The notes under the pieces are model-generated. The model saw nothing but the letters and a program-made list of their open reading frames with translations. It had not been told where the DNA came from and searched no databases. 64,000 bases of DNA from Dehalococcoidia bacterium (GTDB lineage Bacteria > Chloroflexota > Dehalococcoidia > UBA2979), in the NCBI GenBank assembly GCA_965262725.1, contig OZ253555.1:1760001-1824000 (forward strand). Reading direction: 5' to 3'. Position numbers and translations under genes: made by a program. Positions 57,760-64,000 of the stretch are shown piece by piece; position 1 is the first letter of the stretch, and the number at the start of each line of letters is the position of its first letter.

Positions 57760-57836
57760 CGGGGCGTAGCTCAGCCTGGCAGAGCGCTGCGTTTGGGACG
57801 CAGAGGTCCGCAGTTCAAATCTGCGCGCCCCGACCA
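57760..57836 (+). tRNA. tRNA-Pro(TGG)
   Basis: CGGGGCG/CGCCCCG acceptor stem, CTGCG-TTTGGGA-CGCAG anticodon arm, GTTCAAATC T-loop, encoded CCA. Confidence 0.97.
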
Positions 57837-59797: not shown

Positions 59798-62596
59798 ATG
59801 AGCCGCCGCTCTTTCGTCGCCGGCGCAGCCGCCGTGGCGGTCGTGATCGCGACCGTGCTGGTCGGGCACGCACCGGCGACGCCAGCCGCGGCCCAAGCCC
59901 CTCACATCTGCGATAACGGCACCGTCATCACCGACCCGACGGACACCGAGCTCGTCGCGGATTGCAAGATCCTCTGGGGCGCGAAGGAGGCGATCGAGGG
60001 CACGGGCCTCAACGTCAAGCGATGGCTCGACTGGGGCGCCACGAAGGCACTCTCGCAGTGGGAGGGAGTCACCGTCGGCGGCGACCCGAGGCGGGTGACG
60101 GAGTTCGAGCTGGCAGCCAACGACGGCAGCGAAGGTTACAGAGGGAATGTTCCGGCCGCGCTCGGGAGCCTCACAGGGCTGGTGAAGTTGAGGCTGCACT
60201 GGCACCACAATCTAGGCGGCAGCTACGGAGTCGGCGGAATCCCCTCGGAGCTCGGCAACCTCGTGAACCTGGTGCACCTGGTGATCAGTTACACACAGGT
60301 CGACGGTGAGATCCCATCCTCGATTGGAAACCTCACCAAGCTGGAACATCTCGACCTCGGAGGAAACAGTCTGTCCGGCGGCATACCGTCGGAGATATGG
60401 AACCTCACGGAGTTGCATACGCTGCGTCTCCACGCCAACGGACTCACGGGAACGATTTCCTCGGATGTGAAGAAGCTTACCAAGCTCAAGACGTTGAACC
60501 TGCATGGAAACAGCTTCTCCGGAAGCATACCCGCCGAGATCGCACAGCTTGCCGAGCTGGACAACTTGACTCTATATGAGAACGAATTCACCGGTACTAT
60601 TCCTCCAGCCATTGGCAATATGCCGAAGCTGACAACCCTGGATTTGAGATCGAATCAACTCACGGGTTCCATCCCCGGAACCCTTGTGAATCTGCTGCCC
60701 GAACTGGATCACCTGAGACTTAACGGCAACTCCTTCTCCGGCTGCGTGCCGCCGCTCTTGCTCGAGGTCGAATACAACGACCTTCCGTCCATCATGGAGT
60801 ACTACGAACTCCCGCTTTGCGGGTCGAGCACTAACACCAACCAGAACCAGGCTCCCGCGATCTCGTCGGCGGCGGTAGACGGCGACATGCTCACGCTGAC
60901 GTACAACGAGCCCCTCGACGAGACCTCGCAGCCGGCCATGACGGCGTACACCGTCACGGTGGACACCGTGGGCCGAGGGGTGACCGGTGTCGTCGTGAGC
61001 GGGAGCACCGTGACGCTCACCCTCGCCTCGGCGGTCGTCGGCGGCGAGGTGGTCCTCGTGAGCTACGACGCGCCGCAGACGGGCTTGGTGCAGGATACGA
61101 GCAGGACGGCCGCGGCCCGCCTGACCGACGAACCCGTGGAGAACGTCACCAACAACGACCCGTTCTTCACCACGGCCCCGTACTCGTTCACCATCGATGA
61201 GAACACGCGGGCTGTCGGGATGGTGCTCGCGGACGACGTGGATATCCAGGACACCGTCGGTTACAGGCTGACGCCAGCAGTCCCGCCCGACGACGGCCTG
61301 CTCTTCGGCATCACGAACGCCGGCGACCTGTTCTTCAAGCTGTCGACCGGCGCTGACTACGAGCACCCCGGATCCGTCGAGCGCAGCAATGTCGACCGGA
61401 ACGTCTACTGGGCGACCGTCGTGGCGACGAGCGGAACCGGCGACCGCACGAGCACGACGACCGAGCAGGTGACCGTGACGATCACCAACGTGGAGGAGGC
61501 CGGCGAACTGCGCTTCTCCTCGGAGCAGCCGCAGGTGGGGACGTCGCTGCTCGCCACGGTCGACGACCCGGACGGCAGCGTCTCCGACACCACGTGGAAG
61601 TGGGAAATCTCCTCGGACCAGAGCAACTGGACGACCCTGACGCACGAGACCACGCCCAATACGCCATCGTCCTCGTACGCCCCGGTCGCGGCCGATGAGA
61701 ACAAGTACATCCGCGTCACAGCCGAGTACACCGACGCGGTGCCGGGCGCGGATGAGGTCCAGCGGACGCTCACCAGCGCGGTCCAGGTCGCGCCGGACAA
61801 CAACACCGCGCCCACGTTCGAGCCGAGCGAGACGGGTCGGCGAAGCGTGGAGGAGGGCACCGGACCGAGGGAGCCCATCGGCCCGCCGGTCGAGGCCACC
61901 GACGCTGACACCGACACGCTCACGTACAGCCTCGGCGGCACGGACGCAGACTCCTTCGACATCGTCCCGTCGTCCGGACAGCTGCTGACCACGGCGCCGC
62001 TCGACTACGAGACGAAGGACAGCTACGAGGTCAGCGTCACTGCCACGGACCCGTCCGGTGAGACGGCCACGATCACCGTGACGATCACAGTCATCGATGT
62101 AGAGCCGGAGGACTGGCTCAACCCGCCGGACAACGGTGGCGGCGGCGGTGGCGGCGGTGGCGGCGGTGGCGGCGGTGGCGGCGGTGGCACCACCACCTTC
62201 AACGGGGGTGGCGGGGGTGGCGGGGGCGGTGGCGGTGGCGGCGGCGGAAGTCCCAGGCCGAGCGACGAGGACTTCGAGTGGAACGTGACGGGCGACATCG
62301 ATCCACTGGACTCCGCCAACAGCGATGCCACCGGCCTCTGGGGCGACGGCACGACGCTGTGGGTCGGTCAGAACGGAGACGGCACGAAGGACGGCGTCTT
62401 CGCCTACGACCTGACGAGCCACGAGCGCGTGGCCGATCTCGAGTTCGACCTGGCCGAGGAGAACCGCGCGCCGCGGGGCGTCTGGTCCGACCACGAGACG
62501 ATGTGGGTCTCCGACAGCGGGCAGGACCGCGTCTTCGCCTACGACCTCGAGAGCGGAGAGCGCCTCGAGGACCGGGAGTTCGAGTTCGCCGCCCGC
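59798..62596 (+). CDS. Giant secreted LRR / SwmB-repeat / cadherin / beta-propeller-repeat protein, exon 1 (933 codons)
   Basis: SRRSF signal peptide, about 8 plant-type LRRs (L.L..N.L.G.IP), SwmB-like module (LTLTYNEPLD), cadherin repeats (LDYE, ATD.D), poly-Gly linker, G.WSD..TMWV repeats. Confidence 0.88.
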
Positions 62597-63458
62597 GTGC
62601 GTCCGGAAGTCGAAGGGGTGGTGACGTGATGACGTGACCGGTCCGGAGACATGCTCGTTGCTGCCAGCCGGTGAGAGTCCGGCACGGGTAACTGTCAGGA
62701 GGCCCGTTAGCAGGTCGGCGGCGTGGACGGGAAACGGTCTGCGTCGAAGCCCGACGTCAAGAGCCCTATGAGGGGGAGCAAACGTGCGGTCCGCAGCATG
62801 ACGCGAAGTCTGCCGCGCCGTGAGACTCGCCTGTCTATTGACAGGACCAAGGAGGAGCCGAGCCCGGGTGGTCAGGGCGAAGGCCATGGACGAGGTGAAG
62901 ATCCTGGAATGCAGCCTCAAGAAACCTCCCGGCGTATGGGACGTGGAACGTACGGAAGGTAGCGACGGGAACCGGAGAAGCCCTCCCCGGCCCGGCACCC
63001 TGTGAGAGGGCGTCGGAGCGAGGCGTCCTATAACCGGTCAGAGCCGGGAAGTGGACAGCCAGCCGGAAGGGTGGCGGAGGGGGTCGTAGTACCGCTGGAG
63101 CCGGACGGACAACATAACCGCCGGTGATGGGAAGGACCCCTACTTTGTCCGTGCATGTTGCTGGGGGTGTGGACTGGTGAGTGCCCCTCGGGGCTAGCAA
63201 CCACTTGGTAGGGTTCGAGGCTCTCCGCACATGCTGTACCGGCTGGCCAAGGCACGACCCACGTTGTGGGGAGCGCTGCATGCCATCTGGTGAAGGGCAT
63301 CGGTGAGCCGGATGAGGGAGAACCTCACGTCCGGTTCGATGTGGCAGGGGCTGGAGACGGACGCTGCTATGGCCGTGGAGTTGGGCACCACCGGGAAACC
63401 GGCTTGGAACTGATGCGCCACCGCCTACGGCTCGCACCGCGCCAGCCCCTGACCCTAC
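62597..63458 (+). mobile_element. Group II intron, non-autonomous (IEP/RT deleted), 862 nt
   Basis: 5' GTGCG; domain V GAGCCGGATGAGGGAGAACCTCACGTCCGGTTC (63305-63337) with AGC triad; domain VI with bulged A (63452) ending CCCTAC; removal rejoins the host gene in frame. Confidence 0.93.
63177..63293 (+). pseudogene. Relic of the intron-encoded RT/maturase (N- and C-terminal stubs) in domain IV
   Basis: Degenerate ...GRVR...HMLYRLAKA... resembles IEP N-termini (VR.LQ..LY..AK); contains a stop and is fused to a C-terminal stub just before domain V. Confidence 0.6.
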
Positions 63459-64000
63459 AACCGCGACGCCCGTGGCATCTGGTCGGACGGCGAGGTGATG
63501 TGGGTGCTGGACGACAGCAGGCGCACGATCTTCACCTACGCGGTCGAGAGCGGGGAGTCCACGGGCGACTACGGGCTCGACTCCAGCAACAGCGAGCCGC
63601 ACGGAATCTGGTCGGACGGCTTCGCGATCTGGGTCTCGGACGGCACGGAGCGCAGGATCTTCGCCTACGTCCAGCAGGGTCAGGGCCTCACGCGCGTCAC
63701 GGACGAGGAGTTCCCCAACACGGTGCTGACGCGGGCCGGCAACAACAGCCCGCGCGGTATCTGGTCCGACGGTGTCCTGATGTACGTGGTCGATGCCCAC
63801 GACGACCGCATCTACACCTACAACATGCCGCCCGCCATCGACGCGCGGCTCGCATCGCTGACCCTGAGCGACGTCGATATCGGGGACTTCTCGAGCTACC
63901 GCACCGGGTACACGGGCGTCTCCGGTGACGGCGTGACGGTGACGACCATCGTCGCCGCCGCGACGCAGCCCGACGCCGCGGTGGAGCCAGCACCCGCTGA
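63459..64000 (+). CDS. Exon 2 of the giant surface protein (runs off the window end)
   Basis: Open frame NRDARGIWSDGEVMWVLD...PHGIWSDGFAIWVSD...SPRGIWSDGVLMYV...DARLASLTLS continues the repeats of exon 1. Confidence 0.88.

Follow-up and report, generated by a model that had tools for sequence, protein, structure and literature searches.

The window analyzed here, a stretch of 64,000 nucleotides (nt) of a Dehalococcoidia bacterium (G000:C1:1760001-1824000, where G000 is the genome with the window and C1 its single contig), ends within a gene for a surface protein with leucine-rich repeats (LRR) and a cadherin domain, the reading frame of which is interrupted by an 862-nt element resembling a group II intron that lacks an open reading frame (ORF). 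The question raised by this locus is whether the element serves the host gene as a domesticated RNA-level switch, as a preliminary description of the sequence had proposed, or whether it is a recent, tolerated insertion, the other option named there. On the evidence presented below, it is very probable that the element is a working non-autonomous group II intron engaged in a genomic burst, and that its copy in the host gene arose by recent ectopic retrotransposition and is not a regulatory device.

The element occupies positions 62597-63458 of the window on the + strand, on which all the exon and intron features given below also lie, and its termini (GTGCG at 62597 and ...CTAC ending at 63458) are those of group II introns. 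The Rfam models suggested in the preliminary description gave two matches. The domain I core at 62665-62801 was matched by group-II-D1D4-4 (RF02003) over the full model (positions 1-138; 102.8 bits against a cut-off of 49, E = 8e-22), and, under relaxed thresholds, Intron_gpII (RF00029) was matched at 63303-63458 with 37.5 bits (E = 2.5e-5), which is 2.5 bits under its cut-off of 40, likely because domain VI is overlong. Domain V (63305-63337; 33 nt with an AGC triad and a 2-nt bulge) is supported by RF00029, by plastid D5 models and by the fold, with two domain-V-only models matching the same positions. In the minimum-free-energy fold, the 3' region forms domain V, a 4-nt linker and a single long helix at 63343-63454, with a stability z-score of -4.08 and none of 200 shuffled sequences equally stable. 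This helix represents an unusually long domain VI of about 112 nt with a canonical base, in which the candidate branch point A63452 is bulged 7 nt from the intron 3' end; in an alignment of four lineages, two compensatory base-pair changes, found in a sister lineage, were located in its basal helix. The canonical domain V/VI pair of the preliminary description is therefore retained for domain V and for the base of domain VI with A63452, but not for the length of domain VI. Two other layouts of the 3' region were rejected. A short domain VI with a 3' extension, hinted at by a 68-nt RF00029 match in family A (one of two families of larger introns described below), was not accompanied by covariation, and in a layout of the B.c.I4 type (a domain VI of normal size with additional stem-loops on its 3' side, according to a figure legend in PMC4424553) the short-helix alternative was broken in families A and B, whereas the long helix keeps its pairing through compensatory changes. 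The longest + strand ORFs inside the element encode 79 and 61 amino acids (aa), and domain IV is reduced to a stub at 63148-63261 containing leftover N-terminal codons of a lost reverse transcriptase (RT) ORF. Judged from its sequence and predicted fold, 62597-63458 is a group II intron without an ORF.

Exon 1 of the host gene (59798-62596, 933 codons in an open frame) encodes a signal-peptide-like N-terminus, an LRR region, an SWM repeat, a cadherin domain, poly-glycine tracts and blades 1-2 of a propeller module (Pfam LRR_1, 70.2 bits; SWM_repeat, 62.5 bits; Cadherin, 56.0 bits); the two long poly-glycine tracts, at 62186-62311, lie immediately upstream of the module. The corresponding unspliced ORF (59798-62629, 943 codons) reads ...EFEFAAR up to 62596 and adds 10 residues before two stops, the first of them at 62627-62629, in agreement with the preliminary description. 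Exon 2 begins at 63459 with NRDARGIWSD..., fills the window to 64000 and, as had been expected, remains open well beyond the window end, comprising 602 codons up to G000:C1:1825264 (position 6264 of L011, the 13-kb locus of the host gene). It encodes propeller blades 3-5, a cadherin-like domain (Pfam Cadherin-like, 25.2 bits) and three C-terminal tandem repeats of about 85 aa. The intron lies in the sense orientation and in phase 0, the predicted junction of the ligated exons being GCCGCCCGC|AACCGCGAC and the predicted spliced product an LRR/cadherin/propeller surface protein of 1,535 aa; this supports the earlier assignment to LRR/cadherin surface-protein genes, for which, at this length, the epithet "giant" was generous. 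The boundaries 62597 and 63458, which coincide with those first proposed from the letters alone, are set by four independent lines of evidence: 24 exact 862-nt copies occur in differing flanks; an RT frame of 461 codons is regained when a copy nested in a larger intron is excised; the host protein, after joining in silico, can be aligned across the junction with five of five intron-free homologues without a gap (one paralogue from G000 and four from relatives), confirming the frame restored by joining 62596 to 63459; and contig joints in two other sequencing runs omit exactly the 862 nt. Paralogues were used in the third line because a close orthologue of the host gene was absent from 40 relatives (best match, 66% identity over 99 aa).

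The genome, a single contig of 3,674,403 bases (70.6% G+C, completeness 91.55%) apparently derived from a metagenome, contains the 862-nt intron in 24 exact copies with 12 distinct kinds of flank and in four broken or variant copies, 28 in total. A search with RF00029 at E up to 0.01 revealed 59 domain V/VI matches, namely, 27 of the small element, 12 of family A, 3 of family B, 13 of an unrelated D1D4-6 type and 4 others. Families A (12 members) and B (3 members) are larger introns with RNA 86-89% and 79-81% identical to the small element, respectively, and 13 of the 24 exact copies are nested in their RT genes, the other 11 being ectopic. The home site is the stretch of RT-gene codons ...CFESIP|HDRL..., insertion always occurring after ...CFESIP. 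In both families, all RT genes (15 of 15) are split at residue 197|198, and an uninterrupted copy was not found in G000; the halves of the split RT match positions 1-83 and 84-204 of Pfam RVT_1, followed by GIIM, with no match to HNH. Removal of the inner intron restores the outer RT for the 13 nested copies, which are thus twintrons, whereas the copy in the host gene is not nested. Six unbroken family A composites of 2,936 nt were found, four of them identical, one with one mismatch and one with a 1-nt difference in length. It should also be noted that other insertions, of about 1.2 kb in one case and 2.6 kb in the other, disrupt two copies of the small intron (C1:1391132-1393205 and 291159-294653), with overlaps of 4 nt and 5 nt resembling insertion-sequence target duplications, and that two exact intron copies stand head to tail in one RT gene at C1:549500-551223, as if the second had reverse-spliced into the 5' junction of the resident copy.

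The origin of the small element was revealed by a genome of the same genus, G003, which contains one uninterrupted 2,073-nt relative with an open RT frame of 472 codons, in which the home site is empty and nearly identical to that in G000. Positions 1-664 and 666-862 of the small intron align to positions 1-659 and 1880-2073 of the G003 intron, about 1,220 nt being deleted at a breakpoint at about position 664/666. Consequently, the small element is an ORF-deletion derivative, which keeps domains I-III, the domain IV stub and domains V-VI; the related full-length intron for which a search had been recommended is represented by this intact relative, together with the 15 interrupted RT genes of G000. 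A deletion with ORF remnants, related RT/maturase genes in the same genome and mobility are all found here, as in ORF-less introns that depend on trans-acting helpers, the helper genes being all interrupted, so that the trans-maturase dependence considered in the preliminary description is supported. The nearest solved relative of the RT is the GsI-IIC RT (E = 3e-58), a match that leaves the intron class (A-F, ML or CL) unsettled, and its other relatives lie mostly in Actinomycetota assemblies. Among the 80 best loci of this RT lineage, an ORF-less inner intron at the same RT site was not found in other genomes; several of these loci carry other RT-encoding introns nested at other positions. 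A metagenome scan for the 30-nt stretch at the deletion breakpoint gave 0 matches, in a collection that may omit close relatives of G000.

Other retroelements of the genome are also arranged in nests. By tblastn, 54 RT segments belonging to several RT families were identified in G000. The D1D4-6 introns are found in 13 places, for example at C1:1850342-1851698 (Rfam 170 bits), and tblastn recovered 10 uninterrupted copies of their RT, a protein of about 370 aa that shares 38% identity with that of family A, the remaining domain V matches of this type being associated with split or weakly matched RT genes. At C1:732582-737446 (L131), a three-level nest was observed, in which a family B intron contains the 862-nt intron, which in turn contains an RT intron of about 1.9 kb of the D1D4-6 type that splits it at position 722|723, within domain V. 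The same 722|723 split with a gap of about 1.9 kb occurs twice in the relative G008, and this repetition suggests that domain V of D1D4-4 introns may be a homing target for a D1D4-6 lineage. All 12 family A twintrons were found at one repeated target, ...GATATCCGGTGAGGTTG|TCAAGGATCTGGTC..., beside a repeat of about 1.95 kb (for example, C1:1183400-1183434 and 1186371-1186510), and are thus themselves nested in other repeated DNA.

The choice of insertion sites can be described by pairing between exon-binding sites (EBS) of the intron and intron-binding sites (IBS) of the 5' exon. The putative EBS2 (62824-62829, GACTCG) pairs with CGAGTC at positions -14 to -9 of the home site, and the putative EBS1 (62868-62872, GTGGT) pairs with ACCGC at positions -5 to -1. 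The EBS1 loop covaries with the 5' exon in all four lineages with known flanks (the small element, families A and B, and the G003 intron), and the EBS2 hairpin does so in the three lineages having it; the hairpin is absent from family A and from G008. A GCGGT loop near 62786 was rejected as EBS1, being invariant across six lineages although the four with known flanks differ in the 5' exon. The home site forms 11 of 11 pairs and the 11 ectopic sites form 8-11 of 11, compared with a mean of 6.2 at 200,000 random positions, 0.66% of which reach at least 10 pairs. In the host gene, the putative IBS1 (62592-62596, CCCGC) forms 4 of 5 pairs and the putative IBS2 (62581-62586, CGAGTT), displaced by 2 nt away from the junction relative to its home-site position (shift +2), forms 6 of 6, giving 10 of 11 pairs in total.

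The orientation of the copies mostly follows replication. Judged from cumulative GC skew, replication starts near 0.40 Mb and ends near 2.51 Mb, and on this basis 10 of the 11 ectopic copies are co-oriented with the leading strand. The remaining one, near the terminus, is located on a plateau 26 kb past the skew maximum and is unassignable; for all 24 copies, 21 are co-oriented, two are opposite and one is unassignable. RTs without an endonuclease are described as priming from replication forks (PMC4424553; PMC8919778), and a leading-strand bias is accordingly expected in the case of such an RT. Frame analysis, Pfam and tblastn placed five of the ectopic copies in the sense orientation within ORFs and three in antisense, three copies remaining unplaced. 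The sense hosts are the adhesin gene considered here, an RNase_T/ExoX-like exonuclease gene, a DUF429 gene, an RT gene of a D1D4-6-type intron and an ABC-2 permease-like ORF, in which the Pfam hits are below the cut-off. Of the three antisense copies, two interrupt a phosphotriesterase-family gene (232 bits) and a HAMP/HisKA sensor-kinase gene, respectively, and one lies where an IS630-type transposase gene begins. Since splicing from the host transcript is impossible for a copy in antisense, these represent knock-outs still to be purged, and the insertions in the phosphotriesterase-family and HAMP/HisKA genes (C1:537614-538475 and 1018206-1019067) are probably fresh ones. These sister insertions, which show that gene-killing events are tolerated for now, raise the possibility that the adhesin gene is likewise dead, the intron not being usefully spliced at this ectopic site and the loss being tolerated on account of many paralogues. 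Pairing below the level of the home site and the presence of at least 12 paralogous modules are consistent with a plain knock-out of this kind, and, in so young an insertion, the presence or absence of exon decay carries no information. On the other side, 24 identical copies require splicing and hence an active ribozyme and helper, 10 of the 11 possible pairs are still formed at the host-gene site, and five of the eight ectopic copies that can be placed relative to an ORF are in sense; we therefore regard this explanation as unlikely.

The host locus, whole or in part, was found in 20 public runs from seven studies, and the contigs of four runs (four studies) were aligned to L011:3320-5200. 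In runs X5 and X6, from two studies, one contig each connects L011 3595/3596 directly to 4458/4459, so that 862 nt are missing; the joint, which is ambiguous by one letter, corresponds to 3596|4459, the predicted exon junction. The joint record of X6 is 122 nt long (95 nt of exon 1 and 27 nt of exon 2, no mismatch) and has a depth of 32.8, compared with 30.3-31.4 for mismatch-free exon contigs; two bins inside the intron are uncovered in this run, which alone proves nothing. In X5, the joint contig has a depth of 32.7, and contigs of the exact intron have a depth of about 150-160 versus about 29-45 for exon contigs. In X1, a skipping joint was not observed, and one contig covers the last 27 nt of the intron and continues into exon 2 for 742 nt, free of mismatches and at a depth of 38.8; the depth of its exact-intron contigs (875-934) relative to that of the exon contigs (39-41) fits 24-28 copies. 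The exon junction is confirmed whether X5 and X6 are DNA or RNA, and the simplest reading is that near-identical strains exist with and without the host-gene intron and with differing copy numbers, the empty-site joints indicating that the insertion is recent and polymorphic. The intron-less alleles for which a comparison had been advised are thus represented by exact joints, and these, together with the identity of the host-gene copy to 23 others, favor the recent, tolerated insertion named among the initial options. The same runs bear on whether the assembler misplaced a repeat into the host gene, for an exact repeat with 24 copies is hard to assemble and the single-contig genome is apparently metagenomic and 91.55% complete. 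The independent X1 contig, which spans the intron end into exon 2 at exon-like depth without a mismatch, and the agreement of the insertion point with the target rule of the intron make such an artefact extremely improbable.

The position of the intron within the protein is informative with respect to the proposed switch. The module split by the intron is about 266 aa long and is present in G000 in at least 12 uninterrupted paralogous copies, and, according to an alignment to intron-free paralogues and a structural model, the exon junction maps to its residue 115|116 and separates blade 2 from blade 3. The AlphaFold model of a paralogous module, built from an alignment of 12 sequences (predicted local distance difference test, pLDDT, 78.5; predicted template modeling score, pTM, 0.80), shows five groups of 3-4 strands, and its best PDB matches were glutaminyl cyclases (TM-score 0.64-0.73), which are five-bladed propellers, other propellers being matched as well; a PDB sequence search with the start of exon 2 gave nothing significant (best E = 0.013). 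On the strength of this model, the module is a five-bladed propeller that the intron cuts after blade 2. Since the cut lies within a closed fold, the unspliced 943-aa product, which also lacks the cadherin-like domain and the three C-terminal repeats, looks broken rather than like an evolved short isoform. Under the switch, the efficiency of splicing would determine whether the gene yields a short LRR-cadherin form that is secreted or the anchored adhesin in full length, and several features are compatible with it: the insertion is exact, in sense and in phase 0, both exons are intact with a stop 10 codons into the intron, and an ORF-less intron making surface-layer isoforms is described in Clostridium tetani (PMC3919590). 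However, the insertion is not conserved, an empty allele with identical exon sequence being present in two other runs; the host-gene copy has not diverged from 23 mobile copies; sister copies disrupt other genes in antisense; one propeller fold is cut; and the paralogous modules in G000 are free of introns. Neither were the extra domain V/VI copies suspected as markers of alternative 3' exons found in the 8.5 kb downstream, the 13-kb locus L011 containing a single domain V/VI at E up to 0.1. We consequently judge the switch to be highly unlikely. Among side observations on the host gene, the paralogous propeller modules occur in very long ORFs (open frames of up to 7,300 codons; for example, C1:3349500-3350297, 2355701-2356501 and 1929328), which probably constitute a large family of surface proteins with a repeat that has no Pfam family, and a tRNA gene is located at 57760-57833, upstream of the host gene (Rfam 64.2 bits).

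The favored explanation, a non-autonomous intron in a burst, may be outlined as follows. An RT-encoding intron of about 2.07 kb lost about 1.2 kb and, with it, the RT gene in domain IV, and the resulting small intron recognizes a stretch of the RT gene of its own relatives through EBS2/IBS2 and EBS1/IBS1. Because the intron occupies every cognate RT gene, it would have to be spliced before a helper could be made, and the RT/maturase of family A or B, produced only from messages freed of the inner intron, would then act in trans. Lacking an endonuclease, this helper may have driven reverse splicing into sites resembling the home site, for the most part in the lagging-strand template, and the site between propeller blades 2 and 3 of the LRR/cadherin gene is presumably one of them. 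Since that insertion is exact and in sense, splicing in trans would restore the intact 1,535-aa protein, and the intron probably splices from the adhesin message; from unspliced RNA, the 943-aa product would be made, in which the propeller is broken and the C-terminal repeats are missing. If the adhesin level depends in any way on intron or maturase activity, this would be a by-product.

Several points weigh against this explanation or limit its reach. Splicing in vivo, the RT that acts and the pathway of mobility are inferred, in contrast to the identity, boundaries, deletion origin, copy number, nesting, target rule, strand bias and polymorphism of the intron, which are observed. None of the 23 runs listed is an RNA run with the host locus. 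The kind of X6 is not on record and X5 is DNA only by a guess, and with an RNA origin the joint would represent splicing. A second RT family (D1D4-6, 38% identical to family A) is present and could, like families A and B, be considered as the mobilizing one. Polishing of a long-read consensus may partly produce the perfect identity of the repeats. The EBS assignment is based on four lineages and is partly derived from the home site, and the pairing at the host-gene site is weaker than at the home site, which could lower splicing.

This finding belongs with the known ORF-less mobile introns and twintrons, and ORF-less introns are reported to be expanded in certain genomes (genome survey, PMC8919778). 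The closest known system is that of Thermosynechococcus elongatus, with the ORF-less TeI3, the RT-encoding TeI4 and twintrons (Mohr, Ghanem and Lambowitz 2010, PMC2882425). As described there, and as here, an ORF-less intron arose from an RT-encoding relative by a single deletion in domain IV with ORF remnants kept, many copies are present, the inner introns of twintrons are identical, and sites are chosen by EBS/IBS pairing; the splicing and mobilization of TeI3 in trans by related RTs correspond to what is inferred for the present intron. In the described TeI twintrons, the inner intron is placed between the first and the second ATG, which allows RT to be made without splicing, and two introns have continuous ORFs, whereas here the inner intron lies in the middle of the RT domain (RVT_1 83|84) in 15 of 15 cognate genes. 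Few of the introns described for T. elongatus lie within genes, whereas at least 7 of the 11 ectopic copies found here overlap, in one orientation or the other, ORFs that match Pfam or an RT; the near-identity of the outer introns is a further difference. The nested introns of Methanosarcina acetivorans (Dai and Zimmerly 2003, cited in the review PMC4424553) are described as ORF-less and RT-encoding introns homing into related intron ORFs in multi-level nests, which is similar to the situation here, including a three-level nest, although that system is archaeal. Trichodesmium resembles our genome in having ORF-less introns inside bacterial protein genes, maturases encoded in trans and a high intron load; its arrangements are reported to be conserved in metagenomes and were shown to splice in vivo, whereas the present insertion is polymorphic and its splicing is predicted. 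Finally, C.te.I1 of C. tetani (McNeil, Simon and Zimmerly 2014, PMC3919590) is likewise an ORF-less intron inserted in sense in a surface-protein gene. Its splicing is described as using a shifted 5' site together with any of four alternative 3' sites, every one of which has a domain V/VI repeat of its own (PMC3919590; PMC4424553), in a genome stated to have no RT gene (PMC4424553), whereas the intron studied here has a single domain V/VI, a canonical 5' site and 24 identical copies, in a genome with 59 domain V matches and many RT genes. Less common in the present system are a complete set of helper genes captured in mid-domain, fresh insertions in host genes in both orientations, and observable empty alleles.

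With regard to the biology of this lineage, the genomic context corrects the tempting regulatory reading of an intron in a surface-protein gene, which appears here as part of a selfish burst. Ordinary annotation pipelines would call the host gene and all 15 RT genes truncated or pseudogenes. In this system, no copy of the helper gene is free of the non-autonomous intron, and natural populations offer filled and empty alleles of one site; fresh insertions in both orientations, together with these alleles, allow the early colonization of coding genes, and the selection against it, to be watched. It is conceivable, although we consider it rather doubtful, that the ORF-less intron has captured its own helper, the interruption of all 15 cognate RT/maturase genes in mid-domain closing a positive-feedback loop. 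If this is true, the loop could make intron activity all-or-none and explain the sudden burst to 24 identical copies, and one shared trans-acting maturase would splice the insertions in the adhesin, exonuclease, DUF429 and perhaps ABC-2 permease genes, coupling several host genes to the on/off state of a retroelement. Such an arrangement would reproduce, on a small scale and in living bacteria, the transition by which mobile introns came to share a common splicing apparatus.

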